Positions 6,999-31,980 are shown, numbered from the stretch's first letter. The stretch: 64,000 nt of DNA from Alphaproteobacteria bacterium (GCA_965220745.1 CBDCQT010000012.1:192001-256000); one strand, 5' to 3'. The notes: generated by a model from the sequence alone, not told the origin. A program made the numbers and translations.

Positions 6999-9077
6999 TC
7001 AAGCGACCGCGCTTTCGAGACGAACGTACTCCACCTTGTAGGGCACGTCGGCGATGGCGCCTGCATCGAGCTCACGGGCGAACCGGTGACCCTCGTAGAC
7101 CGCGTGCTGGATCGTGCCGGCCGCCACGCAGTCGCCGACGCGGGCGAGCGTGGTAATCCCGGCCTTCTCCAGCTTGTCCGGTTCCGCCGCAAGCTCCCGG
7201 TAGAGCGTGTCGTTCGGCAGGCGCGAGGTGGCGAGAACGAGAGACTGATAGCCGAGATGCTGTCGCTTCTCCTCGTGATAGACGTTGTAGATCTCGATGC
7301 TGTTGTCGCCGATGTGGGCGATGTTTTGATCGGTGATCAGCTCGATCCCCATGGAGAGGACCTGGCTCATGATCTTCTCCATCTCCAGGGTGTACTCCGA
7401 CCAGCGCGAGAGCTCCATCAGTGGGGTGACGATGGTCACCTCGTGACCTGCGGCCCGGAGCTTCTCGGCAATGACGCCGCCCATGTAGTAGTGATCGTCG
7501 TCGAACACGACGATGGGACCCTCCAGCGCCTTCCCGTCCATCACGTCATCGGGGGTGAAGACCTTCTTGCCGTCGCTCCCCGGGATCGCATGCGTGTTGG
7601 TGTAGGCGGCGCCGTCGCCGCGCCAGTGCGAGCCGGTCGCGATGACCACGGTCTCGGCGCCGTAGTCGAGCACGTCCTGCATCGATAGGCGCGAGCCCGT
7701 GTGCACCTCGACATTCTTCATCTTCGCGATCTGGCCGACGCGGTAATCGCGCACGCGGCCCCATGCGGCGAGGCCCGGCAGCGCGCTCTCGCGCGACACG
7801 CGTCCGCCCATGTCGGCCTCCGCCTCGACGAGGTGAACCGTGTAGCCCCGCTCTCCGAGCGCGCGTGCACATTCCAACCCGGCCGGGCCGGCGCCGACGA
7901 TGAGTACGCCGTTGTCGGACCCCTTCGCCTCGATCGTCTCCGGGTGCCAGCCACGCCGCCACTCCTCGCCTGCGGTCGGGTTCTGCGTGCAGCGGAACAG
8001 GCTCCCCGTGTTCTCCGAGGCCACGCACATGTTGCAGCCGATACACTCGCGGATGTCGTCGTTCCGTCCCTCTTCGATCTTCTTCGGCAGGAAGGGATCG
8101 GCGATCGAGGGGCGCGCCGCGCCGATGAAGTCCGTGATCCCGCGACCGATCTGGGAGATCATCGTATCCGGCGAGGTGTAGCGCCCGACCGTCACGACCG
8201 GCTTGTCCGTCTTCTGCTTGACGAAGGCGACGTAGGGCTCCTGGAAGGCCTCGTCGGTGAACCGCGACGTGGCGGAATCGTAGGCCCAGTCGCTGATGTT
8301 CACGTCCCAGAGATCGGGCAGGTCGGAGAACATCTCGACCACGGCCTGGCCTTCCTCCTGCCAGGTGATGCCGTGCTCGCCCCGGTTCTCGTCGACCGCG
8401 AATCTCAATGCGACCGCCGCCCGGTCGCCGACGGCCTCCTTGGTGTCCTCCAGAAGCTCGCCGATCAGGCGGGCGCGGTTCTCGACGCTGCCGCCGTACT
8501 CGTCGGTGCGGTGATTGGTGTGGGGCGAGAGAAAGTGCTGCGGCAGAGCGATATCGTGGCCCGCATAGATGTAGACGATGTCGTAGCCCACGTTGACCGC
8601 GCGTTTCGCGGCTTCGACTTGCCAGCGCCGGAACTCGCGAATGTCGGCCTTGTCCATCTCGCGGCCCATGATGGGATCCCAGTTGTAGTGCACCATGTTG
8701 GGCGAGGGACCCAACGGGAACTCCTTCGTCTTGCGGTTGGAGAAGCCGAGCCCGTTATGGACCAGCTCCACGGCGGCGAGCGCACCGTACTCGTGCATGG
8801 TGTCCACCCAGCCGCGAAGCTGCTCCGCGTACTCGTCGTTCCAGAGCCGGCGTTCGCCGTAAGGGGCGGCGCAGGAGCTTGGATGGATGCTGCATTGCTC
8901 CGTGCAAATGACGGCCCAGCCGCCTTCGGCCTTCATGCGCCGATGCGCGACATCGCCGTGGTGCTCGCCGTACCCCATCGCATTGCAGTGGGGCACTTGA
9001 TAGAAGCGGTTCTTGGCGATCTTCGGGCCGATCTTGATCGGCGTGAACAGGATGTCGTAACGGGGATCGCGGGCCAT
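6999..9077 (-). CDS. Histamine/trimethylamine dehydrogenase-family iron-sulfur flavoprotein (paralogue 2, histamine-dehydrogenase-like)
   Basis: MARDPRYDILF start at ATG 9077 after GGGAGG; VPHC, CTEQC, YIYAGH, ECIGCNMC...RCTQNP, GAGPAG. Confidence 0.92.
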   Translation of the reverse strand: MARDPRYDILFTPIKIGPKIAKNRFYQVPHCNAMGYGEHHGDVAHRRMKAEGGWAVICTEQCSIHPSSCAAPYGERRLWNDEYAEQLRGWVDTMHEYGALAAVELVHNGLGFSNRKTKEFPLGPSPNMVHYNWDPIMGREMDKADIREFRRWQVEAAKRAVNVGYDIVYIYAGHDIALPQHFLSPHTNHRTDEYGGSVENRARLIGELLEDTKEAVGDRAAVALRFAVDENRGEHGITWQEEGQAVVEMFSDLPDLWDVNISDWAYDSATSRFTDEAFQEPYVAFVKQKTDKPVVTVGRYTSPDTMISQIGRGITDFIGAARPSIADPFLPKKIEEGRNDDIRECIGCNMCVASENTGSLFRCTQNPTAGEEWRRGWHPETIEAKGSDNGVLIVGAGPAGLECARALGERGYTVHLVEAEADMGGRVSRESALPGLAAWGRVRDYRVGQIAKMKNVEVHTGSRLSMQDVLDYGAETVVIATGSHWRGDGAAYTNTHAIPGSDGKKVFTPDDVMDGKALEGPIVVFDDDHYYMGGVIAEKLRAAGHEVTIVTPLMELSRWSEYTLEMEKIMSQVLSMGIELITDQNIAHIGDNSIEIYNVYHEEKRQHLGYQSLVLATSRLPNDTLYRELAAEPDKLEKAGITTLARVGDCVAAGTIQHAVYEGHRFARELDAGAIADVPYKVEYVRLESAVA

Positions 9078-9211: not shown

Positions 9212-9592
9212 CTAGGCGGCGAGCTGCTCGGACTCGGGATCGTGAATGAAGAAAACCTTGCGGACGGTCTCCTCGATCACCCAGGTCACCTTCTCGCCTT
9301 TGTTCGTGTAGAAGATGTCACCGGCGGTATAGGTGTGGGTGGTGCCGTCCTGTTCGGTCACGTGGATTTTGCCCTTGAGCAGGGTGCAGATCTCGTCGCC
9401 CGGATAGGTGTATTCGAAACTGCCCGGCGTGCACTGCCAGACACCTGCCATCGTGCGCATGCCGAAGCCGCCCAGATCGAAACGCCCCTCGTGCACCGGG
9501 TTCCCGTCGAGAACGTTCACGAACGGCAGCTCCTCCAGCGGCGGCCACGGCTCGAGCCCGCCCTCGTCCTTCAGCGTCACATAGTCGAGCAT
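9212..9592 (-). CDS. Cupin domain protein (DUF861/EutQ-like)
   Basis: AGVWQCTPG...DEICTLLKGKIHV...YTAGDIF...W...ETVRKVF pattern; ATG 9592 after AGGGAGAGGA. Confidence 0.85.
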   Translation of the reverse strand: MLDYVTLKDEGGLEPWPPLEELPFVNVLDGNPVHEGRFDLGGFGMRTMAGVWQCTPGSFEYTYPGDEICTLLKGKIHVTEQDGTTHTYTAGDIFYTNKGEKVTWVIEETVRKVFFIHDPESEQLAA

Positions 9593-9684
9593 CCTCGTTC
9601 TCCTCTCCCTTATCGGCCAGTGAGTTGAGCCATTGTTGACATCGCAGAAGCCTGTCGGCGCGATACTAGGACATTCTTCACCGA

Positions 9685-11862
9685 TCAGGCGACCCGCTTG
9701 GGAAACGTCTCGTGACCCCAGACCTGGCGTTCGCGGATCCATGGCAGCGGCTGTTGCGGATCGTCGGATTCGAACTCGCGCGCGAGCCTGTGGCCGTCGA
9801 AGATGGCGTTAGCGACGATGCGCGGGGCGTGGCAGTCGCCGACCCGATAGACCGCCTGGATGCCTTGGCCGGCCCACTCCGCGCTGCGCGCCTTGACCTC
9901 GCGAAACACCCTGTCGTCGCTCACCCGTGCCGTGCACAGGACGACACTGTCGCACTCCAGCTCAGTCACCTCGGTGCCGGCACGGCGCGAATACTCGCCC
10001 TTCTTTGGCGTCAACGTCCGAACATAGCCGTCCCGATAGAGGTAGAAAATCGCCAGCTTAACTGCATTGCCTATCTCCAATTTTTCCGCCCAATGCAGCG
10101 TATGTTGCTCGATGTTCTTCTCGTGCATCATGCGGCGAATATCGTGAATCTCCTCGGTATAGATGCAGTGAGACGCGACGTTATCGAAGTTGGTGACGAT
10201 GCTGACGTCTTTGCCTTGATCGGCAAGCAGCTCCGCCATGCTCACGCCGGTGTAATAGCCCTCGTAGTCGAGCACGACGACGCGCTCTCCGGTCTCCTTG
10301 CCGGCCATGATCTGCTCGGGAGTGCAGATTTCCGGTAGCGACGCATCTGCGCCGCTGAGCGGGGCCTGGGTCACGCCGCCGAGACCGTTCGTCGACCAAC
10401 GCGCTCCGGTGGCGAAGACCACCTTGTCGGCGCCGTATTCCAGAACGCTGTCGGCGCTCATCTCGCCGACCCCGGTGTGCACCTCGACGTTCTTGAGCTT
10501 GTCCAGCTGGCCCTGCCTGTAGCTGATGACGCGGCCCCATTCGGCGAGATGGGGATAGCGCATGATGTCCTTCATGCAGCCGCCGGTCTCGTCCAACGCC
10601 TCGCGCAGGTGGACGTCGTAGCCCCGCTCTCCCAGGACACGCGCGCACTCCATCCCTGCAGGGCCGGCGCCGACGACGAGAACTGAGCACGGATCCTCCG
10701 CGCGCTCGAACTTCTCAGGATGCCAGCCGCGCCGGTATTCCTCCATCGACGTGGCGTTCTGCGTGCAGATCAGGGGCGTCGTCTGCCACCACTTCGAGAG
10801 ACACATGTTGCAGCCGATGCATTCGCGGATGTCGTCGGTCCGGCCTTCGTCGATTTTGTTGGGGAGGAAGGGATCGGCGATGGAGGGACGCGCGGCGCCG
10901 ATCAGGTCGGCCTGCCCGGACTTGATGATCTGCACCATCTCATCGGGGCTGGTGACACGGCCGGCGCTGACCACCGGAACACTACAGGCCTTCTTGGCTT
11001 CCCTGATCCAGGGCGCCATGTAGTTGGAGGCCGTGGAGCGCGAGGCGGCGATTTCCAGCGCGAGCTCGGAGTAGCGGCCGACCTTCATGTCCCAGACGTC
11101 GCACAGGCCTTCCCTCTCGTGAAGCTCGATGAAGCGAATGCCGTCCTCCCAGACCTCGAGCCCGTCCGGGCCGTCCATGGTATCGACCGAATAGCGATAG
11201 CCGACCGCGCACTCATCGCCGACGGCCTTTTTGGTCGCCTCCGAGACTTCGAGGGCAAAGCGAGCGCGGTTCTCCATCGAGCCGCCGTACTTGTCCGTCC
11301 TCTTGTTGTAGTAGGGCTGAAGGAACTGGTTCATGATCATCGAGTCCGAAACCAGGTTCTCGATGATGTCGAAGCCTGCATCCCGCGCCCGCTTCGCCGC
11401 ATCGACGTGCATCTGGATGACGGCGCGGATGTCGTCGTCGTCCATCTCGCAGGTGCTCGCCAGGGGAATCGCCTCCGACGGCGCTTGACTGGGCGCACGG
11501 CTGATCGCGCGGGATTCACCGCTCTGAGAGTGCAAACCGGCGTAGTAGAGCTCGACGCCGGCCAGCGCGCCGTGCGTGTGAATGCTGTCTGTCACGTGCC
11601 GCAGGCTGATCACGTCGCCTTCGTCCCAGAGACGCGCGGACCAATGCGGTGAATCGTCTGATTCCGGGTGGATCGCGGTGTACTCGATGAAGACGGTCCC
11701 CCAACCGCCTTCGGCTTTCATGCCGCGGAACGCGGCCTGGGTGCCGGGGCGATCCGAGCCCGCGCTGTTGCAATGGGGCGTCTGCCAGAACCGATTCTTC
11801 GTTGCTTTTGGGCCGACATTGACCGACTCAAACAAAACGTCGTGTTCTGGATTTCGCGCCAT
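9685..11862 (-). CDS. Trimethylamine/dimethylamine dehydrogenase-like flavoprotein (paralogue 3, altered active site)
   Basis: Colinear with TMADH along its length (TPHC, EYTAIHPESDD, SARLWDEGDV, YYNKRTDKYGGS, ECIGCNMC, CTQNATSMEEYRRGWHPEKF, C-terminal HRLAREFE...WG); 725 aa. Confidence 0.9.
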   Translation of the reverse strand: MARNPEHDVLFESVNVGPKATKNRFWQTPHCNSAGSDRPGTQAAFRGMKAEGGWGTVFIEYTAIHPESDDSPHWSARLWDEGDVISLRHVTDSIHTHGALAGVELYYAGLHSQSGESRAISRAPSQAPSEAIPLASTCEMDDDDIRAVIQMHVDAAKRARDAGFDIIENLVSDSMIMNQFLQPYYNKRTDKYGGSMENRARFALEVSEATKKAVGDECAVGYRYSVDTMDGPDGLEVWEDGIRFIELHEREGLCDVWDMKVGRYSELALEIAASRSTASNYMAPWIREAKKACSVPVVSAGRVTSPDEMVQIIKSGQADLIGAARPSIADPFLPNKIDEGRTDDIRECIGCNMCLSKWWQTTPLICTQNATSMEEYRRGWHPEKFERAEDPCSVLVVGAGPAGMECARVLGERGYDVHLREALDETGGCMKDIMRYPHLAEWGRVISYRQGQLDKLKNVEVHTGVGEMSADSVLEYGADKVVFATGARWSTNGLGGVTQAPLSGADASLPEICTPEQIMAGKETGERVVVLDYEGYYTGVSMAELLADQGKDVSIVTNFDNVASHCIYTEEIHDIRRMMHEKNIEQHTLHWAEKLEIGNAVKLAIFYLYRDGYVRTLTPKKGEYSRRAGTEVTELECDSVVLCTARVSDDRVFREVKARSAEWAGQGIQAVYRVGDCHAPRIVANAIFDGHRLAREFESDDPQQPLPWIRERQVWGHETFPKRVA

Positions 11863-22400: not shown

Positions 22401-23711
22401 TTACTGGCGCTGATCCCACATCTGACCGCGATCCCGCACGTGGGCGATGATCGACTCCTTGTGGGCGTCGAACCAGGGCTCGAAACGCATCATGGAGACG
22501 ATGCGCTTGCAGTTGCAGTCGGCGTCGAAGACGTTGGTCGGGATCGGATGCGACATCATATTCTTGATGCCCCACATGTCCTCGCCCGAGATCAACGCCG
22601 GCCCCTCGATCGTCATGATCGCTTTCTCGGCGCGGATGGCCTCCAGCACCGCATCGGGATCGAAGCTGCCGGCCTTCTCCAAACCGTGCAGATAGACCTG
22701 AACGATCGGCATGTAGAGCCAATCGATGCCGGTCATCGGCGCGTTCACGTCTTCCGGCGCACCGTCGCCGAAGCGGGCCTGCCAATCGTCAACGAACTGG
22801 CTCTGCATCGAGGGGTTGCCCCACCAGGGGTCGTCCATAGTGGGATAGCTGTCGTAGCCGCCAACCTTCGCGGCCCACTCCGGCGGCACCTTCTGCAGCA
22901 CCGATTCCCATTCGATGTAGTTCGCGTTGATGGGCCCTTCAAAGCCCTGCAGATAGAGCTGCTCCAGCACCAGCGGAATGAAATCGGGCCAGGTGATGTT
23001 GAGCGCCACCGCGTCCGGCTTGGCCGCAAGTAGTGCGGTTACGACGGGCGCGAAATCTGTGGTCTCGGGCGAGAAGTGCTCGTCGTAGACGATCTCCCAA
23101 CCCGCCGCCTTTGCCGCGCCAACCTCCCAGGCCTGCCCGACGAATGTCACCGCATCTTCCTGCGCGATGACCCCGTAGGTCTTCAGCTCGGGATAGACGT
23201 TCTTGATGTAGAGCGGGCGCATCATTTCGCCGCGAGGGAACGAGTCCTCGCCGGCGATCACGTAGGGGCGGTTGGGGTTGATGTCGGTGGACGCAAGCGG
23301 CGCATAGAATACGCCGTTGTCCATCAGGAACGGGATCTGGGAGTCCCCGGTCGTGCCGCCGACACCCAGCACCATCTTGACCTCGTTCTCGAAGACAAGC
23401 TGCTTCGCGCCCTGTAGTGCCTTGCTCGGTACATACTCGTTATCGAACTGGTGGATCTCGATCATATGGCGCGTGTCACCGACCAGGAGCCCGCCTTCCG
23501 AGTTGATCCAGTCGGCCAGGATCTTCAGGCCGGTGAGCCCAGGCAGACCCCAGCCCGCGACCGGGCCGGACAGCGGTGCATTGAAGCCGATGCCGATGGG
23601 ATCGCCGACATTCTCCTCGGCGTTTGCTTGAGAGAACGTGCCGAGCGCGAGAACACCGGAAACTGCAAGTATTCCGACGCAGCGGAGCACTGTTTTTCCT
23701 AGCGACTTCAT
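22401..23711 (-). CDS. LivJ/LivK-type periplasmic binding protein
   Basis: Signal peptide; IGFNAPLSGPVAGWG, INSEGGL, TTDFAPVV; ATG 23711 after GGGAGA. Confidence 0.88.
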   Translation of the reverse strand: MKSLGKTVLRCVGILAVSGVLALGTFSQANAEENVGDPIGIGFNAPLSGPVAGWGLPGLTGLKILADWINSEGGLLVGDTRHMIEIHQFDNEYVPSKALQGAKQLVFENEVKMVLGVGGTTGDSQIPFLMDNGVFYAPLASTDINPNRPYVIAGEDSFPRGEMMRPLYIKNVYPELKTYGVIAQEDAVTFVGQAWEVGAAKAAGWEIVYDEHFSPETTDFAPVVTALLAAKPDAVALNITWPDFIPLVLEQLYLQGFEGPINANYIEWESVLQKVPPEWAAKVGGYDSYPTMDDPWWGNPSMQSQFVDDWQARFGDGAPEDVNAPMTGIDWLYMPIVQVYLHGLEKAGSFDPDAVLEAIRAEKAIMTIEGPALISGEDMWGIKNMMSHPIPTNVFDADCNCKRIVSMMRFEPWFDAHKESIIAHVRDRGQMWDQRQ

Positions 23712-24010
23712 GTTGTCTCCCTTTCCCTCGTTGGGTCTTCGCATCAACCAGAGATCCACCCCCAGCGCGGAGCATAGCCGCGCCAAAACGGGCGTTCAAG
23801 CCGACCACGCCCGCCGCCAAGTGCCGACACGCCCCGTGAAGGAAGATGTCCGCGGCCGGACGTTCTCGGGAAAGCAACCGCCGCGCGCCGTTGCATAAAG
23901 CTGCACGCTCCGACAACCTGACGTTCGAGAATGCCTCGGCCTTGCTGTTGACAACCCGAATACGAGTGCCTCGAGTCAGGTGTTTGAACCGATCGCACTA
24001 CCATCCAAGA

Positions 24011-25669
24011 TTAGGTTCCATACTGCACCTCAATACTCCGCTGGTCGGCAAGATCGGGGAACGTCCCTGTTCCGGGCTTCGTCCTGGTTGGTATGGTTGG
24101 CGGTGGATCGGGGATTTGGAACAGGTGTTCGGGTCTGTCGTTGTAGGCGTGTGCGCGCAGCAGCCCGGCCCTGTGCCATCTGTGTACCGTGTCGTCGGAC
24201 CCTCCGAGCCGGTCAGCGGCTTCCAAGGCCGTCAACAGCCCGCGTTCGCGCAGCCGGTCACGGCGGGTCTTGAGAGCGTAGTTGACCCGGACCACCTTCA
24301 CCGATATCGGGTCGAAGGCGTGGCCGTGTCCGGTTCGGTACCCGCGCCGGTTGAGGATCGCTGCGATCTCGCCCTCGGTGTGATCGTTCAACAGCCTGTC
24401 GACCTCGGCGACGACCTCGTCGCTGGTCTTGGTGAGCTGGGAAGGGTGAGGGTCCGGCGTCCAGGTGATCTGTCGGGTCGCGCCGCCGCGCAGGCGCACC
24501 CCGAGGCTCCGCGTGGCCTTGGTCAGGGTCACGTCCTCGATCAGCAGCCGCGCCATCCGCTTGCGCTCGCGGTGCGGCGTCGCCGGATCGTTCCACAGGC
24601 GCGGGAAGTCGCTGGCCAGGGCGAGGATTCGCTCGCGTTGCGCGTCGTCCAACCCCTGGCCCGGTTCGGCGCGGCTGCGCTCGCGCTGGGCCTCGTCGAG
24701 TGCGCGAAGCTTCGCGTTCCACTCCGCCTCCAGCACGTCGGCCACCATCCGGTTGTCGGGATGGGTCTGCATGAACCGCTGGCGGGCCAGGTCGGCTTCC
24801 TCGCGGGCGCGCTGCACCCGCTGGGCGCGCCACAGATCCGCCTCTCCGGCGCGCGCGGCGAGTTCGTCCTGCACCTGCAACGCGACGTCCAGCGTGAGCG
24901 GTGTCATCAGCTCGACCAGCAGCGCGCCGACCGCCCGGTCGATGGCGCCGCCGGATATGCTCTGGCAATTCTCCGCGCTCGCCGTCTCGACCCTTTCGCG
25001 ATTACACAGGTACTGGGGGCTTTGTTGCCCTTTTACGGTTCGGTAGCGCACCGTCATGTTCCTGCCGCACACGCTGCAGATCGCCAGGCCCTGCAGCAGC
25101 GCGGACCCTTCGCGCGGGGCGCCGCGTCGCTCCGCCGCGGCGTGCGCATGGGCATTGTCCCGGAGCTGGCGCTGGTTCTGCTCGAAGCGCTCCCAGGTGA
25201 TGTAGCCCGGGTGGGCATCGCGCAGCAGCACCGTCCATTCCTCTCGCGGAACGCTTCTGGTCTCGACACCGCCGCCGGGACGGCGCCGGCTGCGGCTGCG
25301 CCCGTACGCGAAAGCGCCGGCGTATCGCGGGTTGTGCAGAAGCCCGCACACGCGCGAGAACCTCAGGGGTTTCCAATGCAGTTCACCGCTGTGGAGCCCG
25401 CCTTGAGGACGGTACGGAAACAGCAGCTTCTCGTTGTTGAAATGCCTGACCGTGGCGCTGGCCGAGCCGGTCCGCGTGAAGGTGTCGAATATCAGGCGCA
25501 GACTGTGCTGCACCTGCTCGTCGGGGTCGAGCGCCACGTTGCCGAGCGGGTCGTAGACCAGCCCCACCGGCAGCGACACCTTCAACTCCCCGCGCCTGGC
25601 CTTGGCCAGCACTCCGCCACGCAGCCGGATGCGCATCATGTGCAGCTCCGCTTCCGACATGGTCCCTTT
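24011..25669 (-). pseudogene. Large serine recombinase, C-terminal part (recombinase, zinc-ribbon, coiled-coil and HTH domains)
   Basis: KGTMSEAELH...KARRGEL...LPVGLVYD, LHNPRYAGAFAYGR, HPGYITWE, LLQGLAICSVCG; continues in frame from the 29149-29565 fragment once the RIT is removed. Confidence 0.88.
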
Positions 25670-25731
25670 GAGCCCATATGTAGGACAGCCCGCTATGTCG
25701 GGCAGCATGCGCAACCTACTGTCAACACGAG
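25670..25731 (+). repeat. RIT left inverted repeat
   Basis: 60/62 identical to the reverse complement of 29067-29128; imperfect extension to 25757. Confidence 0.92.
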
Positions 25732-25815
25732 CTTTTTCTCCAAGCTGTCTGACATAATTTTCTCGGTGCGATTCGTCTGACATGACGTCATCTCCACGAG
25801 TACTGGAGGTGAATC

Positions 25816-27060
25816 ATGTTCGAAACTCTCTACAAGGACCCCGCCACCATCGACAGATATCGGCTTGCGCCCCTGTTGGAGGATCGCGAACGGTATCTGT
25901 GCGCCGTGCTCGCCTCGGGTGCGGTCGTTGAGGTCGCACGCCGGGTCGCGCGTGCTCAGCTCGCCCTCATCGATCTGCTGAACCTGCCCGATGCCGACGT
26001 TCCGGTCGATTTTGCGGCGGTAGAGGCGGCTGTTCAGGAGTGGTGTCGGAACGTTCCCGCAGTTTCGGCCGCGAATTTCCGGCGCCATGCCTTTCGCTGG
26101 CTGCGTTTCCTCGGCTGGCTGGAAGAGCCGGTTGGGAATGCCCATCCGCACGCCCGGCAGGTGGAGGCTTTCGCCGCCTGGATGCGGGACGACCGGGGGC
26201 TGTCCGAAGCGACCATCGGCAACTGCTGCTACGAGAGCGACCGTCTCTTTGCCTGGGCAGCAGGCAGGAACCTGATGCTCGCCGACATGACGATCGGCGA
26301 CGTCGACGAGTTCCTTGCCGCGCGGATTGCCGACGGAGGTCTTCGTCGAACGTCCGCGCGCGCCGCGGCCGGGTGTCTGCGCAGCTTTTTCCGTTTCGCC
26401 GAAACGCGGAACTGGTGCCGGTCGGGCATCGCCGGGTGCATCATGCCGCCGCTGGCCTATCCCGACCGACCGGTTCCCAAGGGGTTCGATCACGACGAAG
26501 TCGAGAGGCTGCTCGCCACGACGGAGGGTTCGACCCCGGCAGACGTTGGCGACCGTGCGGTGCTGACGATCCTTGCAACCTGCGGGCTCAGGGCCGGCGA
26601 AGTTGGCGCTCTGCGCGTCGAGGACATCGACTGGGAGCGGGACAAGCTGCGCGTGTTCCGTCCCAAGACCGGCCGAACCGACACCTTCCCGCTCACCCCC
26701 TCCGTCGGCAACGCGTTGATGGACTATCTCCTCAAGGTGCGCCCGGAGGCGGGACGGGAGCGGGCCTTGTTCCTGACGTTGCAGGCTCCGTTCAGGCCGC
26801 TGACGAGCAGCGCCATAGGGATGATCGTCCGCAGCCGCGCGAACCGCCTTGGCATCACCGGCAAGCGCCTGGGCGCCCATGCGCTTCGCCATGCGGCGGC
26901 ACAGCGGCTGGTCGACGAGGGGTGCGGACTCAAGACCGTCGGCGACTTCCTCGGCCATTCCAGCCCGAGCGCGACGGCCGCATACGCAAAGATCGATCTC
27001 GCCTCGCTTCGCCCGGTCGCCGACATCTGCCTGAAGGAGCTGCTCGATGACGCTGCGTGA
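25816..27060 (+). CDS. RIT tyrosine recombinase A
   Basis: CGLRAGEV, RPKTG, HALRH, LGH...AAY catalytic residues; long N-terminal region typical of the first RIT gene. Confidence 0.92.
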   Translation: MFETLYKDPATIDRYRLAPLLEDRERYLCAVLASGAVVEVARRVARAQLALIDLLNLPDADVPVDFAAVEAAVQEWCRNVPAVSAANFRRHAFRWLRFLGWLEEPVGNAHPHARQVEAFAAWMRDDRGLSEATIGNCCYESDRLFAWAAGRNLMLADMTIGDVDEFLAARIADGGLRRTSARAAAGCLRSFFRFAETRNWCRSGIAGCIMPPLAYPDRPVPKGFDHDEVERLLATTEGSTPADVGDRAVLTILATCGLRAGEVGALRVEDIDWERDKLRVFRPKTGRTDTFPLTPSVGNALMDYLLKVRPEAGRERALFLTLQAPFRPLTSSAIGMIVRSRANRLGITGKRLGAHALRHAAAQRLVDEGCGLKTVGDFLGHSSPSATAAYAKIDLASLRPVADICLKELLDDAA

Positions 27061-28036
27061 GGCCGTTGACCGCTATGTTGCGTGGCAGCGCGACCACGGC
27101 GCCAAGTTCCGCTCAAGCGCCGAGACCCTCGATACCTTCTGTCGCCGGATCGGAGAGGACAGGGACTGTGACACGGTGGGCGAGGATGAAGTCCGCCGCT
27201 TCCTTGCCGGCAAGGGGACGCTCACGAGAACACGCGCCGTAAAATACGGAACGCTTGCCGGGTTCTACGGCTTCGCGCTGAGCCGGAGCCATGTGAGTTG
27301 CATGCCCATGCCGCCGCGGGAGGCGGAACCGCGGCCGCCCGAGGTCGCGCCGCCCTTCATCTTCACTCATGAGGAATTGCGGCGCCTGTTCAAGTCGGCA
27401 GGCGGGGGCCGCAGGCGTTGCCTCAAGCTCGATATCGAGACCTTCCGGACATTCCTGCTCCTGCTCTACGGCGCCGGACTGCGCTCCGGAGAAGCGCGGC
27501 GACTGAGCGTGGCGGACGTGGACCTGGACTCCGCGGTGCTCGCGGTGAACGACACGAAGTTCTACAAGAGCCGTCTCGTGCCGGTCGGCGCCGACCTCGC
27601 CGGCATGCTTCGCCGATACGCCGCCATCCGGACACAGCGCCCCCTCCCCGAGGGATCGGCATCCACCTTCCTCGCCTGCCGCGACGGGACGCCGCTGAAA
27701 AAGGCCATCGTACGTCACGCCTTCCATAAGACGCTTCGGGCGGCCGGAATCGAGAACAGAAAACCCGGATGCCGGGCGCCCTGCCTGCATTCGCTGCGCC
27801 ATAGCTTTGCCACCCATCGCCTGACCTCCTGGCATCGCGAGGGGGCCGACGTTCAACGGCTCCTGCCGGCGCTTTCGACCTACCTCGGCCACGGCAGCGT
27901 GGCAGCGACGCAGGTCTACATATCGATGACCCCGGACTTGCTCGACGAGGCCAGCCGCCGGTTCGAGCGCTACGTTGAGCACAACCCAGGCCCGGATGCC
28001 GGGCAGCATCGGAAAGGGGGTACAAGCCATGCCTGA
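27047..28036 (+). CDS. RIT tyrosine recombinase B
   Basis: AGLRSGEA, TKFYKSRLVP, HSLRHSFA, LPALSTYLGH...TQVY. Confidence 0.92.
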   Translation: MTLREAVDRYVAWQRDHGAKFRSSAETLDTFCRRIGEDRDCDTVGEDEVRRFLAGKGTLTRTRAVKYGTLAGFYGFALSRSHVSCMPMPPREAEPRPPEVAPPFIFTHEELRRLFKSAGGGRRRCLKLDIETFRTFLLLLYGAGLRSGEARRLSVADVDLDSAVLAVNDTKFYKSRLVPVGADLAGMLRRYAAIRTQRPLPEGSASTFLACRDGTPLKKAIVRHAFHKTLRAAGIENRKPGCRAPCLHSLRHSFATHRLTSWHREGADVQRLLPALSTYLGHGSVAATQVYISMTPDLLDEASRRFERYVEHNPGPDAGQHRKGGTSHA

Positions 28037-29030
28037 ACGCAGCTCCGCTCTCGGCACATGGATCAAGCGCTTCCTCTTGGAGTATCTCCCGACCGAGCGC
28101 AATCTGGCGGTCAATACCTTGAAGAGTTATCGCGACGGCCTGACGCTGCTGTTGCCCTTCGTGGCCGAGCGCTGCGGCAAGGCAGTGGAGCGGCTCGCGG
28201 TCGAAGATCTGTCCGCCGACCGCGTGACGGCCTTTCTCGGCCACCTGGAACGGGAACGGGGCTGCTCGGCGCAGACCCGCAACCTGCGCCTTACAGCGAT
28301 CCGCTCCTTCGCCCGCTACGTCGCGGTGCGCGACGCCGCACTTGTCGAATGGGCCGGCAGCATCCGCGCCATTCCGCTCAAGAAAACGGTGCGGCCCCGG
28401 ATCGTCTGGCTGTCGGCGGAGAACATGGACGCCATGATCGCCGGGCCGGACAGGCGCACCGTAGCAGGGCGGGTCGAGCACGCCCTTCTCCTGTTCCTCT
28501 ACAACACCGGGGCGAGAGCCTCCGAGGCGGCGGGACTGCAGGTGGAGGATCTGCATCTCCCGGAACGCACGGGCGAAAACGCGCGTGCAACGATCCATGG
28601 CAAGGGAGGAAAGGTCCGCGTCACGCCGATCTGGACGAGCACCGCCAAGGCCCTCGCCGCTCTCTCCAGGGACCGCCCACCCGGCTGCGGGAGCATCTTC
28701 TGGAGCCGGCATCGCAAGCCCTACACCCGGCATGGAATCATCGAACTCGTGGAGCGTGCCGCCGCTCGCGTGCCGGAACTCAAGGGGCAGAAGATCACGC
28801 CGCACGTGCTGCGGCACAGCTGCGCCTGTCACCTGCTTCGCTCCGGCATCGACATCAACACCATTCGTGCCTGGCTCGGTCACGTCTCCCTCGCGACCAC
28901 CAACATCTACGCCGAGGTCGATCTCAAGGCGAAGGAAGAGGCGATGAAATCCACCTGCCCCGGCGATCCCGGGGACAAGCCGCGATGGAAGGCACGAGGT
29001 GGCCTGCTCGAACAGCTGAAGGCAATCTGA
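28029..29030 (+). CDS. RIT tyrosine recombinase C
   Basis: YLPTERNLAVNTLKSYRD, TRNLRLTAIRSF, TGARASE, HGKGGK, HVLRHS, WLGHVSLATTNIY; ATG 28029. Confidence 0.92.
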   Translation: MPERSSALGTWIKRFLLEYLPTERNLAVNTLKSYRDGLTLLLPFVAERCGKAVERLAVEDLSADRVTAFLGHLERERGCSAQTRNLRLTAIRSFARYVAVRDAALVEWAGSIRAIPLKKTVRPRIVWLSAENMDAMIAGPDRRTVAGRVEHALLLFLYNTGARASEAAGLQVEDLHLPERTGENARATIHGKGGKVRVTPIWTSTAKALAALSRDRPPGCGSIFWSRHRKPYTRHGIIELVERAAARVPELKGQKITPHVLRHSCACHLLRSGIDINTIRAWLGHVSLATTNIYAEVDLKAKEEAMKSTCPGDPGDKPRWKARGGLLEQLKAI

Positions 29031-29066
29031 ACGACAAATATTATGTCGGGCAGTCCGGCGAATAAT

Positions 29067-29128
29067 CTCGTGTTGACAGTGGGTTGCGCATGCTGCCCGA
29101 CATAGCGGGCTGTACTACATATGGGCTC
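29067..29128 (-). repeat. RIT right inverted repeat
   Basis: Reverse complement of 25670-25731 with 2 mismatches. Confidence 0.92.
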
Positions 29129-29154
29129 TTATGTGGGCCATGACATAAGAGCCC
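29123..29154. repeat. Terminal palindrome at the RIT right end
   Basis: GGGCTCTTATGT-gggccatg-ACATAAGAGCCC: perfect 12-bp arms with an 8-bp spacer. Confidence 0.85.
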
Positions 29155-29565
29155 GAGCAGTAGCCGATCATTGAAGTCGCCGGGGTCGTAGACGCCGTCC
29201 TCGTCGAGGATCAGCGTCTCGCTCAGGGCGCAGATCTCAAGCAGGCGGTGCCACTCGGTAGAGTTGCGCGCGAGGCGGCTGACCTCGAGCCCGAGCACGA
29301 TCCCGGCCCGGCCCATGCCGACCTCGGCGACCAGGCGCTGGAATCCCTCGCGGTCCCTGTCGGCGCCGGAGAGACCGAGATCGCTGTCGATCACGACGAT
29401 GCTCTCGCTCGGCCAGCCCAGCGCCACCGCCCGCTCCCGCAGCGCGTACTGGCGGCGCGTGCTCTCGCCATGCTCGAACACCTGACGCGGGGTGGACTGA
29501 CGCACGTACAGGTAGGCATCGCGGCTCAGGTGGTTCGCGGCCACCTTCTGGTGAGCGGGGTTCAT
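29149..29565 (-). pseudogene. Large serine recombinase, N-terminal catalytic (resolvase) domain
   Basis: AYLYVRQST (catalytic Ser), DLGLSG, REGFQRL, EVSRLARN; cut by the RIT after DRLLLGL. The reconstructed protein is 691 aa. Confidence 0.9.
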
Positions 29566-29870
29566 GCGGCTTCCCTCCCCATATGGCCCCTGAGCATCGC
29601 GAGCAGAATGTCGATCACCGGCCTTTCGACGTCGGCGGGCAGCGGCTCCGGGGAAGCGCCGCCGCAAACGGCAGCCGGCGGGGCGGGCAGTTCGGCGAAG
29701 GCATGCAGCCAGGCCGCGACGCCGCGCAGCGCCACCACGGCGAGCCCGTGGCGACCGTGGCCGGCGCCGGGCTCGACGGCATGACGGCGCATCCGCTCGT
29801 AACCGTGCCCGTAGGCGGAATGCTCCGCCGCGGGGAGCGCGGCGCATGGCGGCGGGCTGTGCATCGTCAT
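29562..29870 (-). CDS. Small accessory protein of the serine-recombinase element
   Basis: ATGA overlaps with both neighbours; YERMR...GLAVVALRGVAAW pattern. Confidence 0.65.
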   Translation of the reverse strand: MTMHSPPPCAALPAAEHSAYGHGYERMRRHAVEPGAGHGRHGLAVVALRGVAAWLHAFAELPAPPAAVCGGASPEPLPADVERPVIDILLAMLRGHMGREAA

Positions 29871-30325
29871 CGTTTTTTTCCCCGCGCGAGGGCGCGATCG
29901 ATGCTGCTGCGATGGATCGAGATGCCGAAGCGTTCGCGCACGAACTCGACCAGCGCGGCGGCGGTCAACTCCGGCTGTTCGCTCTTCGCCGCCTGCAACG
30001 CCTCGACCACCTCGTCGCTGAGCTTGTGCGGCCGGCGCGGACCCGGCCGATCCGGTAGCAGCCCCGGCAGCCCGCCGGCGTCGTAGGCGCGCTGCGCCTG
30101 ATACCAGGTGGGCCGCGAGACGCCGAAGCTGGCGGCGGCGTGGCTCACCGTCACGCCGTCCTCGCGCACCCGGCGCAGCATCTCGTACCTGACCTGGAGC
30201 AGGTCGCGCGGGTCGAAGAACTCGTTCGACAGGAACAGCTCGTCGCGCACCGACTCCGCGCGCGGGTTCAGGCAGCCGTGCTCCTTGAGGGAGCGGGACT
30301 TGGCATCGGCGGGGCGTCTGGCCAT
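29867..30325 (-). CDS. Helix-turn-helix protein of the serine-recombinase element
   Basis: LNPRAESVRDELF...FFDPRDLLQVRYEMLR, HTH AAASFGVSRPTWYQ, GLPGLLPDRPGPRRPHKL. Confidence 0.8.
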   Translation of the reverse strand: MARRPADAKSRSLKEHGCLNPRAESVRDELFLSNEFFDPRDLLQVRYEMLRRVREDGVTVSHAAASFGVSRPTWYQAQRAYDAGGLPGLLPDRPGPRRPHKLSDEVVEALQAAKSEQPELTAAALVEFVRERFGISIHRSSIDRALARGKKR

Positions 30326-30506
30326 TGCACGGGCTCCATCGGAAAGGGAATGTAAATATATTTATACAACTTCCCAGAGCCCAATCAATCCCCCTCTCCC
30401 TGCCTGTCGCCGAAAACGTACAGAACTTCCCCATGTATGCGCCACTCCTTGCCGTCTCCCGGCCGCCGTGACGCCATGTCCCCGCCATTCATGCGCAACA
30501 ATATCA

Positions 30507-30854
30507 TTACACATGCGGCAAAATCTCCTTGGCAGTCTCCGCCCCGTCGTCGCTCTCCCGCATAGTGCGGGCGTCCCCGTCCAGGCTGTCCAGCAATGCC
30601 GCCAGCGCAAGCAGGTCCGAGACGCGGAACGCCGACCGGCCCGCCGCTACCCTCACAAACGGATCCGCCGCCGCGGCGCTCGTAAACGCCTGCCGAATCG
30701 TCCGCAGCGCTCCATCGTCAGCCGTGTAATGAACCAGCCCCACCCCCAGCACCGACGTGGTCTCGATCAGTTCGAACTCACGTCCGTGAAGCGGATGAAA
30801 CGGGTGCGTCACCCGGACGAGCTGCCGCTCGACGCATCCGAGGGGTGCACTTGA
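30507..30854 (-). CDS. DUF5372 (Y4bD/Y4pK-like) ORF, frame open up to the element end
   Basis: VTHPFHPLHGREFEL...DPFVRVAAGRSAFRVSDLLAL motif; only a GTG (30812) without an obvious RBS; no stop between it and the junction at 30855. Confidence 0.7.
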   Translation of the reverse strand, partial: SSAPLGCVERQLVRVTHPFHPLHGREFELIETTSVLGVGLVHYTADDGALRTIRQAFTSAAAADPFVRVAAGRSAFRVSDLLALAALLDSLDGDARTMRESDDGAETAKEILPHV

Positions 30855-30856
30855 AT

Positions 30857-31400
30857 GCCCAGTCCCAGTGCCCGCACAATGGTTGCACCTATGCGCTCTG
30901 CCGCTGCCTCGATCTCACGGTCGCCGACATGGGCGTAGCGCAGCGTCATGCTCGGCCGCTTGTGGCCAAGCAGGCGCGAGACGACCGGGAGCGGGATGCC
31001 CTGCAGCACGGCGTGGCTCGCGAATGTGTGGCGCAGGTCGTGCAGGCGCACGTCCTCGATCCCGGCTTCCTTGCGCACCGAGTACCAGAGCGGCAAGTCG
31101 GAGCACAGTGGCCGGTCCGGATTGAGCGACGAGGGAAAGACGAAGGCGCTGCCCGACCGCGGCTGCCGCTCCAAGATGGCGCGGGCCGGCGCATTCAGCA
31201 GCACCTGTCTCGGTCCGGTCTTGGCGTCGACCAGATTGAGCGCATCTCCATCGACGTCCTGCCAGCGCAGGGTCACGATCTCGCTCTTGCGGCAGCCAGT
31301 CAGCAGCAGCAGGCGGATGATGTCGGCCTGTTGCGCGCGCGAGATCCGGTCTCCGGCATGGCGGTCCAGCTCGCGGTGAAGGCGGCGGATCTGCGCGGCA
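30857..31400 (-). pseudogene. Tyrosine integrase, catalytic domain only
   Basis: LLLLTGCRKSEI, DAKTG, HDLRHTFAS, LLGH...TLRYAH; no recognisable N-terminal domains; 3' end interrupted by the serine-recombinase element. Confidence 0.8.
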
Positions 31401-31980
31401 CGGTCGACGGCCTTCTCGCCAGGGACGAACGCTGGGCGTTCAACCGGAATCGGGTCGAGGCATTCCTCGTGCGGGCCGCGGAGGCCGAGCGTGCGCGGAA
31501 CGCTCTGACGCAGATGGACGTCACGACTTCGTCGTTCGAGGAGCGTCTGCAGGCCCGGCAGGACCATATCATTCTCGCCTCAACAATGCCTTAGCCTGTC
31601 CAACCGCCCCAAAGGGAGCATTGATTCCATTGGGGAAAATCGTGCGATGTCCAACCCAAATCCGGGGCGGGCCGATGAGCGTGCGCGCGATGGCCTGGGC
31701 CTTCGGGTGTCGAGCCAGCGCTCGATTTCGGCTGCAGTGGCCTCCTTGTCGCCAGTATAGATGCCGTTCAGCCGGGGTGCGGTGCCGGAGGCCTGCCCAC
31801 CGATCTGATCGGCGGCGCAGGCCCGCAACGAAAAGCTGAGTTTCTGGTGATTGAAAACTCCAGCGAGTCTCGAAGACCGACAAAAATGCTCTAGGATACG
31901 CACCTGCCAAGCGGCGAGGCCCGTCGTGCCCGCCGCGACATGACCGGTGAGCAACCTTCGCAGGAGAGGGAGAGAAAACC

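Follow-up and report, generated by a model that had tools for sequence, protein, structure and literature searches.

Positions 24006 to 30867 of the window—the whole 64,000-nucleotide stretch of DNA analysed here—are one copy of a small IS-like element moved by a large serine recombinase, and the first gene of this element, DUF5372, appears to be split between the element's two ends. Joining the ends would complete the DUF5372 cistron, with promoter, ribosome site and start codon all coming from the other end. In the chromosomal state DUF5372 would be severed from these three; in the excised circle it would become the last gene of an HTH-orfX-recombinase operon. The explanation that we favor, with some reserve, is that of an IS-like serine element with an end-split cistron whose product acts as a directionality cofactor, its supply being set by the topology of the element.

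The element is 3.39 kb long, and its circle, without the passenger described below, would be 3,387 bp. The genes come in the order DUF5372, HTH, orfX and recombinase (Table 1). The DUF5372 domain matches its profile with 74.8 bits (gathering cut-off, 25) over profile positions 1–77 of 78, and the genome from which the window comes has one copy of it. HTH follows DUF5372 in 30 of 35 loci; its product resembles, below cut-off, the N-terminal parts of IS630 and IS481 transposases. A gene is annotated at the orfX position in Bradyrhizobium. In most lineages ATGA overlaps chain HTH to orfX and orfX to the recombinase gene, and Shine–Dalgarno sequences precede both HTH and the recombinase gene. The only conserved promoter of the element is the one 5′ of HTH: its TTGA and ATAA-TA columns are kept in at least 80% of 15 lineages, with GGAG and the HTH ATG coming next, and a consensus promoter scanner made no call there.

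By its domain set, and by a 2-bp core in an imperfect inverted repeat, the recombinase is a large serine recombinase. PF00239 matches the intact recombinase of a related locus, L007, with an E-value of 9.7e-20; PF07508 and PF13408 match the 3′ fragment in the window, and L007 at residues 194–310 and 328–386, the latter being the Zn_ribbon_recom span. R21, Q22 and S23 are invariant in 14 recombinase sequences, and S23 is presumably the nucleophile. That the zinc ribbon domain also holds a coiled-coil motif is no more than an implication of the ∼130 residues that come after the zinc ribbon and of the interface modeled below. An extra, MerR/HTH_17-like, domain lies at the C-terminus. In the window this gene is not intact: it is split by a 3,473-bp RIT element, whose three adjacent genes, all on one strand, give Phage_integrase matches with E-values of 3.8e-29, 6.4e-22 and 1.9e-27. 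Locus L003 is collinear but lacks the RIT, and comparison with it sets the break point, 6 nt being common to both RIT edges. Because the RIT trio splits the recombinase gene, the window's copy of the element is dead.

Table 1. Features of the element and of its insertion site, in window coordinates
Feature	Position	Strand	Basis or remark
attR crossover dinucleotide TG, true right boundary	24006..24007	−	equals attL TG; paralogues uninterrupted there
Right end (P arm): 14-nt spacer 24008-24021 + inverted repeat GGTGCAGT 24022-24029	24008..24029	−	end alignments
Recombinase 3′ part (Recombinase, zinc ribbon, C-terminal MerR/HTH_17-like HTH)	24011..25675	−	stop TAA 24011-24013, inside element
Shine–Dalgarno-like GAGGTG 24026-24031 + ATG 24019-24021, proposed true DUF5372 start	24019..24031	−	in frame with TCA codon at 30854 across joint (27 nt)
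RIT element in recombinase gene; tyrosine recombinase genes 25816-27060, 27047-28036, 27975-29030	25676..29148	+	three Phage_integrase ORFs
Recombinase 5′ part (Resolvase domain)	29149..29565	−	PF00239, E 8.7e-14; ATG 29565-29563
orfX (∼102 aa, no family)	29562..29870	−	no Pfam match; start overlaps HTH stop, stop overlaps recombinase start, both ATGA
Helix-turn-helix gene (HTH; 152 aa)	29867..30325	−	HTH_32, HTH_28, HTH_29 matches
Sigma-70-like promoter 5′ of HTH: −35 TTGATT 30383-30388, 16-nt spacer, −10 TATAAA 30361-30366	30361..30388	−	column conservation
Conserved motif across DUF5372 stop (TGTAA-N-T-rich)	30496..30511	−	15 aligned lineages; doubled in four
DUF5372 reading frame, open from left end; domain from GTG at 30812; stop 30507-30509	30507..30865	−	PF17342, E 5.7e-21
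Left end (P′ arm): inverted repeat AGTGCAC 30845-30851 + 14-nt spacer 30852-30865	30845..30865	−	alignment of left ends
attL crossover dinucleotide TG, true left boundary	30866..30867	−	14 nt outside left inverted repeat; same as 24006-24007
Target: 5′-cut tyrosine-recombinase gene fragment; displaced 3′ tail 23976-24005	30868..31400	−	Phage_integrase, E 6.5e-22

The boundaries come from a comparison of 23 related loci with both ends, grouped as 18 lineages. An identical dinucleotide lies 14 nt beyond each terminal inverted repeat at both ends in 21 of these loci, and in all 18 lineages, and it is at this core—TG in the window—that the element would cross over. The two arms are equal in length and symmetric about the core; TCA-ACTGCAC is conserved in the aligned left ends of more than 20 loci, and two ambiguous loci, L033 and L034, fit the scheme only with a 15-nt left spacer. 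The core is TT in 10 lineages, TG and CG in two each, and TC, CT, AC and AG in one each, seven different cores altogether, and GA occurs at both ends in no lineage. Two contigs, L027 and L035, start and finish exactly at TT; in one run, L027 has a depth of 111, against 22 for a flank contig. That the element is bounded by the outer dinucleotide, and that no recombinase–DUF5372 fusion forms, we regard as practically certain.

The element has no tightly defined target, and lineages differ in their core dinucleotide. The window copy sits in a fragment of a tyrosine-recombinase gene, in its 3′ end; this fragment is 84% identical to paralogues of ∼387 aa over their residues 58–233 only. The window's own integrase tail reads RIGATIVRAL, then DGSAIGSNT-stop, the latter being the displaced part. 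All 11 of the paralogous integrase loci match the left flank of the window as far as the core. Beyond it, L045 and L051 run on as the window's right flank does, L042 has a different insertion at the same TG, and the uninterrupted paralogues cross the TG without a break. The joined flanks of another locus, L059, lack 6 nt that IS21 istA paralogues have. The interrupted targets are genes of other mobile elements.

At the right end, at a distance of 14 nt from the core, a conserved GAGGTG-N4-ATG coincides with the recombinase stop or adjoins it. The start codon is ATG in 17 of the 18 lineages and GTG in the other, and in all 18 it is in frame with DUF5372 and open across the joint; in silico, the core falls in codons 5–6 of an open frame. 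Over 17 lineages, the ambiguous L033 and L034 included, this frame has no stop in 315 codons, compared with 5 and 16 stops in the other two; multiplied together, the shuffle probabilities give 6e-6 with lineages treated as independent. Length differences 5′ of the domain are whole codons (L029). In the main family, however, site geometry dictates the ATG–TCA spacing, and so the frame does not amount to 18 independent observations; and because GAGGTG lies within the inverted repeat and the ATG within a recombinase-binding arm, constraint on the DNA site alone could preserve both. With these cautions, the junction ATG is probably the real start of DUF5372. The junction start is in frame and the promoter lies only 5′ of HTH, and so DUF5372 has the look of a final cistron, in an operon found in the circle alone; the sequence thereby suggests that the right-end ATG is used, and that DUF5372 is expressed from the joined circle.

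A preliminary description of this DNA had proposed something else, that crossover at a shared AT makes the circle encode a recombinase–DUF5372 fusion, and the recombinase thus comes in long and short isoforms. The empty-site paralogues and the matching outer dinucleotides refute this. The minus-strand letters that it quoted are correct (GAG GTG CAG TAT GGA ACC TAA at one end, GGGCAT TCA AGT GCA CCC CTC at the other), the TCA frame does run without a stop into the DUF5372 domain, and a join at the two ATs is, as calculated, in frame—a one-in-three event for any arbitrary shared dinucleotide. The left-end dinucleotide at that position varies, however, and so the ends agree there in merely five of the 23 loci. 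The AT at 30855–30856 falls within the left arm, the true ends lying 13–14 bases outward of 30856–30855 and 24021–24020, and the uninterrupted paralogues place the empty site at the outer TG, instead. Ten of these were compared with the integrase tail said to be restored by excision, LGLGMEPNLGW; none has it, and they continue from TG in the same way as the right flank. Nor does the recombinase stop lie outside the element, as had been thought: TAA (24013–24011) is inside, as it is in all 18 lineages, and with its recombinase terminating there, in the right arm, excision could not fuse DUF5372 to it. Because the stop is internal and the frames differ at the true joint, there is no fusion, and there are no isoforms. 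Across lineages the recombinase enters the right end in at least three frames, with its stop at ATG+8, +1, −4, −11, −22 or further upstream. DUF5372 is a separate cistron and not a split-off recombinase domain, and all six of the longer DUF5372 proteins found in a search of 5.8 billion proteins lack a serine-recombinase Pfam domain. One of these, P0123, reads as DUF5372 followed by a recombinase tail, an order such as an internal deletion would give. What survives of the earlier proposal is that end-joining completes a frame into DUF5372, from the right-end ATG and not from the recombinase, and that a state-dependent directionality device, working otherwise than through recombinase isoforms, is still a live reading.

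DUF5372 might, on the other hand, be an ordinary gene that begins at the internal GTG (30812) or at a nearby codon and owes its transcription to read-through out of the flank, or to an unrecognized promoter; the recombinase binding site and GC-rich sequence would then have yielded the open joint frame, the GAGGTG and the right-end ATG as by-products. We take this possibility seriously, but consider it rather unlikely. PGAP calls the GTG start in Bradyrhizobium, most called homologues run for 101 aa from that codon, and GTG is indeed found there in 14 of 21 lineages; in the other seven the codon is GTA, GTC, ATA or ATC, however, a share close to that expected from Val/Ile codon usage by itself, and roughly a third of the best 120 are called from a later Met, at 80–83 aa, instead. 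The absence of a conserved start belonging to DUF5372 itself, asserted in the preliminary description, is thus borne out. Among the 18 lineages with both ends, six, the multi-copy L035 being one, have no start codon of any kind in the left end, and the alignment, as we read it, has no conserved Shine–Dalgarno sequence before the GTG, except for AAGGAG in L004. The left end provides ∼55 nt 5′ of the domain, all of it att site, and this is too short for a promoter. In favor of a by-product, the GAGGTG belongs to the inverted repeat that both ends carry. Codon periodicity, too, is absent upstream: the entropies by codon position are 1.10, 1.24 and 1.12 5′ of the Val codon, whereas the domain has 0.21, 0.19 and 1.05. 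It follows that the extension is no conserved peptide, and that the main coding signal is the openness of the frame, which is open in every lineage while the other two hold stops. The AlphaFold2 model places residues 11–15, 5′ of the GTG, in the first strand of the fold with high confidence (pLDDT 89 for block 11–20). The junction form itself did not appear where we looked: the best 120 homologues include none of its length, 124 aa; a pattern scan of metagenome contigs for a natural joined end gave two matches, both unrelated; and a go-back joint on L027 is missing from the Logan contigs of four runs, which is weak evidence because such contigs lose rare forms. A different route would be for DUF5372 to be made in the chromosome by read-in from the interrupted gene, either fused to its product or through re-initiation, with the supply then reporting a landing in an expressed gene. 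Into the left flank the frame stays open over 4 to 409 codons, two of the six longer homologues are N-terminal parts of tyrosine integrases that run into DUF5372, and the mobile-element targets are in keeping with the idea. In the window, though, integrase and DUF5372 are in different frames, and upstream only 20 codons are open; L025, L029 and L059 are antisense to the rve-type gene that they interrupt; and the long upstream frames read like chance frames of GC-rich DNA. We judge this route improbable.

If the DUF5372 cistron is completed in the circle, as we prefer to think, then what might its product do? The protein is modeled as a small beta-barrel with a C-terminal helix. Modeled together with the recombinase, it scored 0.77 in three runs, the best of three controls scoring 0.00; of 80 solved complexes 58 attain this mark, as do 2 of 110 mismatched pairs. 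Contacts agreed by at least 73% between runs and the pLDDT of the partner was at least 69, from self-built alignments that are shallow (14 rows). The predicted interface joins recombinase residues 334–339, 391–410 and 479–537 to conserved DUF5372 motifs. Directionality factors dock at the zinc-ribbon domain and the coiled coil's base, according to two papers (PMC11795197, PMC11722253), and the model supports the placing of DUF5372 on that same site of the recombinase. It is reasonably likely, we believe, that DUF5372 is a recombinase cofactor; the modeling suggests that it binds the recombinase, and it would then presumably favor one reaction. Because the circle is the only state able to make DUF5372, we lean toward action on the circle, either in integration or in blocking the back-reaction. 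Against this, re-integration would be hampered if a canonical directionality factor were produced solely after excision.

Several known systems invite comparison. One is that of the large serine integrases and their recombination directionality factors (phiC31 gp3, Bxb1 gp47, TG1, SPbeta SprB). The integrases have the same Resolvase, Recombinase and zinc ribbon set, and likewise a 2-bp core centered in an imperfect dyad. Their directionality factors, too, are small, unrelated partners, predicted in our case to sit at the zinc-ribbon/coiled-coil base. Here, in contrast, the attachment site would break up the cistron of the partner, which would therefore be whole solely after excision; the element, of 3.4 kb, is IS-like and not a phage, with loose targets and a variable core; and the recombinase has its extra C-terminal MerR/HTH_17-like domain. 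Tn4451/Tn4453 (TnpX) and Tn5397 (TndX) are also small and moved by a large serine recombinase, through a circle such as the one presumed here, and the circle joint of Tn4451 alters the expression of an element gene, as the joint proposed here would. In Tn4451 that joint builds a promoter for the recombinase itself, whereas here the promoter is internal and the joint would equip a separate ORF, the putative cofactor's, with operon, ribosome site and start codon. Beyond the recombinase domains, these transposons are not known to be akin in sequence to the present element. Elements of the Tn4451/Tn5397 type have a fixed GA core, whereas here the cores are TT, TG, CG, TC, CT, AC and AG.

The same unit of DUF5372, HTH, small ORF and recombinase is present on rhizobial plasmids, as Y4bD/Y4pK and 'DUF5372 family protein' genes. 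All four genes are annotated on plasmids of Bradyrhizobium barranii and Mesorhizobium, but merely as unrelated hypothetical genes; L059 has the same ends, a TT core and a right-end ATG in frame. Our literature search turned up no description of the four-gene unit as an element, and no treatment of DUF5372, y4bD, y4pK, y4bA or y4pH.

Crossover inside a reading frame, with different products from the integrated and excised forms, as proposed here, underlies integration-dependent immunity in mycobacteriophages, and in Mx8 intP and SSV1 int the attachment site lies within the gene. In those systems the integrase is a tyrosine enzyme, and what is altered is a repressor or integrase gene at its 3′ end. 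Here a serine site would remove the 5′ end, instead: the promoter, ribosome site, start codon and 5–6 codons of a putative cofactor. Because the recombinase here is a serine enzyme, and phage genes are absent, the phage switches are an analogue of this element and not its class. Expression that needs joined ends is described as well for ICEclc Pcirc, ICEKp1 P3′end and IS circle junctions (PMC13023037), and the proposed expression of DUF5372 is alike in this respect. Those junctions act on integrase or transposase genes, and on transcription only; in the element described here the joint would supply transcription, ribosome site and start codon together.

The element, in which genes for DUF5372, a helix-turn-helix (HTH) protein, orfX and a large serine recombinase follow one another, belongs to a family that is widespread but rare, being present in seven of 401 genomes sampled across the phylum. 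We collected 35 loci that encode a DUF5372 relative; an HTH gene follows DUF5372 in 30 of them and a recombinase in 28, and 23 have both ends. In the aligned loci, the right end (the side of the recombinase stop) comprises an inverted repeat and then a conserved ATG with 11 more bases, and the left end (the DUF5372 side) comprises 14 conserved bases ending in TCA and then the inverted repeat. On both sides the conserved sequence extends 13–14 bases beyond the AT dinucleotide at which the preliminary description had placed the crossover. At the dinucleotide 14 nt outside the repeats the two ends match in 21 of 23 loci and in 18 of 18 lineages, the chance of such a match being 1 in 16 per lineage. 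At the AT they match in 5 of 23 loci and, if any copy is allowed to count, in 4 of 18 lineages; the right end is nearly always AT there, and the left end is variable. With the outer dinucleotide as the core, both arms are equally long, which fits what is expected of a serine-recombinase site. The core is TT in ten lineages, TG in two, CG in two, and TC, CT, AC and AG in one each.

The two exceptions at the outer position, L011 and L015, belong to an old, duplicated and diverged insertion, and their mismatches are point changes in the diverged flanks. The multi-copy set that contains them (L010–L031) is unusable for boundary mapping because its copies represent a single old insertion duplicated later together with its flanks: all have the same 2.1 kb of left flank, and an IS4-like element interrupts several at one place. 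Two further loci, L033 and L034, are ambiguous and are not among the 18 lineages. With a 15-nt left spacer, and only then, their TT cores match and the junction frame is open, whereas with a 14-nt spacer the cores differ and the frame closes.

The window's core is TG (30867–30866 and 24007–24006). Three independent lines of evidence concur on the outer core. In eleven paralogous integrase genes of the same genus, most of them uninterrupted, the match to the window's left flank extends exactly to this TG, and past it two integrase paralogues (L045 and L051) match the window's right flank. At that TG, locus L042 carries a further copy of the left end of the element. The short metagenome contigs L027 and L035 start and finish exactly at TT; in one run the depth of L027 was 111 versus 22 for a contig that enters the flank, as a multi-copy repeat would show. 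In the Bradyrhizobium plasmid copy (L059), the element is flanked by the two halves of an IS21 istA gene, intact paralogues of which lack both conserved arms. The empty site taken from istA paralogues fits the left side up to the TT (54 of 60 identical), and six extra nucleotides then precede the resumption of the right flank, so that this case is inexact. The extra bases are GGCTTT or GGCCTT, between two TTs (L061, 1652–1665; L062, around 300), and might reflect either natural variation in IS21 or a small loss at insertion.

The sequence letters quoted in the preliminary description were correct, and a join at its two AT dinucleotides would be in frame, as it said. It had gone on to propose that the recombinase stop lies outside the element, that excision fuses the recombinase to the DUF5372 ORF and so yields two recombinase isoforms, and that a target integrase tail, LGLGMEPNLGW, is restored. 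The fusion, the isoforms and the restored tail are not real, because the stop is inside the element, the two frames differ by one base at the true joint, and no fused homologue was found. The window's TAA (24013–24011) is three bases inside the right boundary, and in other lineages the stop falls at ATG+8, ATG+1, ATG−4, ATG−11, ATG−22 or further upstream—always within the element—and at least three frames are represented among the recombinases at this end. In the window, the integrase tail is RIGATIVRAL, then DGSAIGSNT-stop. A search for longer DUF5372 proteins returned six, none with a serine-recombinase domain; two are N-terminal parts of tyrosine integrases that continue into the inserted element, and one of these two (P0123) looks, from its sequence, to be an internal deletion derivative. 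Frame arguments at serine-recombinase junctions, evidently, require that the crossover be mapped first.

Joined at the outer core, the ends have a different consequence. The right arm carries GAGGTG, four bases, and ATG (24031–24019). The distance to the core is 14 bases both for this ATG and for the end of the TCA codon across the joint, and because of this equal spacing the 27 bases from the ATG lead into DUF5372 in frame. In silico joining of the ends gives an ATG start in 17 lineages and a GTG start in one, and no stop interrupts the frame before the domain in any of the 18, among them L030, the distant L058 and the Bradyrhizobium copy. In 17 lineages (a count that includes the ambiguous L033/L034) the junction frame has no stop in 315 codons, versus 5 and 16 in the other frames. 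Shuffled sequences give each lineage about an even chance of an open frame, the product of which is 6e-6 if the lineages are independent, as they only partly are. The frame relation is also partly fixed by the geometry of the site, and GAGGTG and ATG belong to the recombinase binding arm, too. In L030 the recombinase ends 520 bases upstream, so its right end is not recombinase coding sequence; the intervening stretch of about 520 bp (9312–9833) holds a small ORF.

DUF5372 might instead start within the left end, at the internal codon called as its start. Fourteen of 21 lineages have GTG at that codon, and the other 7 have GTA, GTC, ATA or ATC, a mix roughly like ordinary Val/Ile codon usage. 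In six lineages, of which one is multi-copy, the left end is devoid of any start codon, and an alignment read by eye showed no conserved Shine-Dalgarno before the GTG. In the AlphaFold2 model, residues upstream of the GTG lie in the first strand of the fold, in a block of pLDDT 89. The extension upstream of the domain shows no codon periodicity. The annotated 5′ ends of DUF5372 genes are probably wrong.

The stretch from the left boundary to the DUF5372 domain is just some 55 bases long and consists entirely of attachment site, and so there is no room for a promoter 5′ of DUF5372. The spacer between DUF5372 and HTH, aligned in 15 lineages, contains a conserved −35 TTGA, −10 ATAA-TA, GGAG and the HTH ATG; consensus scans for promoters and terminators found nothing on the coding strand, and this putative promoter is visible only by lineage alignment. 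Rfam gave no match at E ≤ 0.1 in 23500–31600. The HTH gene is linked to orfX, and orfX to the recombinase, by ATGA or GTGA overlaps in most lineages, and in 15 of 18 the recombinase stop comes no more than about 11 bases from the right-end ATG, with which it forms ATGA in five or six. Given the promoter position, the overlaps and the proximity of this stop to the ATG, DUF5372 would in the circle be the fourth, translationally coupled cistron of promoter–HTH–orfX–recombinase–DUF5372, and in the chromosome it would be severed from all its signals. It would, in short, be a split gene, with promoter, ribosome site, start codon and first five codons at the right end and the remainder at the left, and its product, a putative recombinase cofactor, would be made only when the ends are joined.

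Features of the element, its insert and its target in the window
Feature	Position	Strand	Remarks
Tyrosine-recombinase gene fragment (target)	30868 to about 31400	minus	
DUF5372 reading frame	stop at 30507–30509	minus	PF17342, E 5.7e-21
Putative promoter boxes	−35 30383–30388; −10 30361–30366	minus	lineage alignment
Helix-turn-helix (HTH) gene	29867–30325	minus	
orfX, small conserved ORF, about 102 aa	29562–29870	minus	without Pfam or NCBIfam family
Large serine recombinase, two pieces	29149–29565 and 24011–25675	minus	
RIT trio insert, three tyrosine recombinase genes, 3,473 bp	25676–29148	plus	splits recombinase

Several other features of the element deserve mention. A TGTAAG-N5-TTTTG motif is conserved across the DUF5372 stop (window 30496–30511, minus strand; same place in L004–L035) and doubled in L028, L029, L030 and L035; it is perhaps an operator for the HTH protein, or else the remnant of a terminator. 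TTACA lies just downstream of the −10 box. The fourth conserved gene, orfX, with an ATGA overlap on either side, is annotated as hypothetical in Bradyrhizobium. The recombinase C-terminus is a MerR/HTH_17, excisionase-like helix-turn-helix (residues 617–656 of the intact copy, L007; window 24011–24300, minus strand). Distant DUF5372-like ORFs of 154–205 aa, with their own upstream ATG, adjoin serine recombinase fragments in another bacterial family (L054–L057, in genomes G300, G291, G405 and G108), and might represent a lineage with an unsplit gene.

Mobile DNA is nested three deep in the window (24006–31400): the RIT trio is within the serine-recombinase element, which is within a 5′-cut tyrosine-recombinase gene. 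The edges of the RIT are fixed by L003, a close relative of the window locus that carries the same element at the same place without it. The window copy of the element is dead, and L003 may be inactive too, because it has 157 extra bases in the 3′ part of its recombinase (8599–8757) and an apparent frameshift, suggested by the overlap of the two N-terminal matches (7404–7411). Elsewhere, a segment of the recombinase tail is present twice in L008 (9285–9585), and a 2.9-kb insertion separates HTH from recombinase in L025 (6963–9834).

Insertions of the family tend to fall in recombinase or transposase genes that belong to other mobile elements: rve-type transposase genes (L025, L029), the IS21 istA gene (L059), and tyrosine integrases (the window, L042, and the longer DUF5372 proteins P0123 and P0125). 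Several sites lie, by eye, at DNA encoding the conserved catalytic-Glu motif of the rve domain. The tyrosine-recombinase family that serves as target in the window has 50 matches in the window's own genome (G000), and at least 70 among the matches listed in some genomes of the genus. The core dinucleotide varies by lineage, even though the two partner sites of a serine recombinase must share one core.

AlphaFold2 models DUF5372 as a small beta-barrel with a C-terminal helix. A fold search with this model found no PDB match at E ≤ 0.001, the best being the small beta-barrel of ribosomal protein eS4 (E 5e-3) and an SH3-like protein, neither of which provides a functional lead; a profile search of PDB sequences gave nothing below E 0.27. 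When the intact L007 recombinase was modeled with its own DUF5372, the complex scored 0.77 in three runs, and the best of three controls 0.00. The score mark used is attained by most solved complexes (58 of 80) and by few mismatched pairs (2 of 110). The runs, built on 14-row alignments of our own making, agree in at least 73% of contacts, with partner pLDDT of at least 69. In the modeled interface, invariant DUF5372 motifs touch recombinase residues 334–339 (zinc ribbon, Pfam 328–386), 391–410 and 479–537. The model supports binding of DUF5372 to the recombinase, and predicts that it sits on a known directionality hotspot.

A cofactor made by the circle and acting on integration would reverse the way in which directionality factors are thought to be deployed. 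An excision factor of canonical type that was made only after excision would be odd, which leaves two possibilities: DUF5372 promotes the integration step, or its short GTG form does something other than the long form. Natural joined ends were sought in metagenome contigs with a strict degenerate right-end/left-end pattern, which misses divergent joints; there were two matches, neither with homology to the element's proteins, and among the best 120 homologues no DUF5372 had the 124 aa expected of the junction form. Public contigs on L027 (four runs, two studies) cover the element and indicate multiple copies, with no go-back joint, a result that is neutral on excision because contigs cannot show rare circles. 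The boundaries, frames, signals and layout are shown by the sequences; that the ATG is used, that the two proteins bind and which way the effect runs are inferred. The proposal in full is that the attachment site of the element divides the gene for its own directionality cofactor, that the cofactor is made only by the circle, topology being sensed without a regulator, that it acts on integration, not excision, and that the family seeks transposase and integrase genes of other mobile elements and tolerates many cores. We would bet neither for nor against it.

Large serine recombinases serve in genome engineering, where the chief practical problem still to be solved is how to control their direction. 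To our knowledge, every enzyme described so far depends on a separate, unrelated directionality factor, and such factors are usually hard to find. This family offers a compact four-gene element together with a dedicated small partner, from the uncharacterised family DUF5372, the supply of which seems to depend on whether the element is integrated or excised. If true, this would be a minimal, self-contained directionality switch, and a new coupling of gene expression to DNA topology. The element's real junction logic is interesting, and since live-looking copies exist in harmless, cultivable rhizobia, it is directly testable. The soybean symbiont Bradyrhizobium barranii CC829, for one, carries two near-identical copies.

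The literature searched gave us no case of a serine-recombinase crossover that parts a cofactor cistron from its promoter, ribosome site and start codon. Searches on joints, start codons and serine recombinases yielded nothing of this kind among the matches listed, and no paper searched mentions DUF5372; the five matches to y4bD, y4pK, y4bA or y4pH concern unrelated subjects. A joint-dependent promoter is reportedly known in Tn4451. Joint-dependent promoters are known also in ICEs (PMC13023037), and attachment sites inside genes are known for tyrosine-integrase phages (PMC9635641). In the way it works, the element resembles known serine-recombinase elements and their directionality factors.
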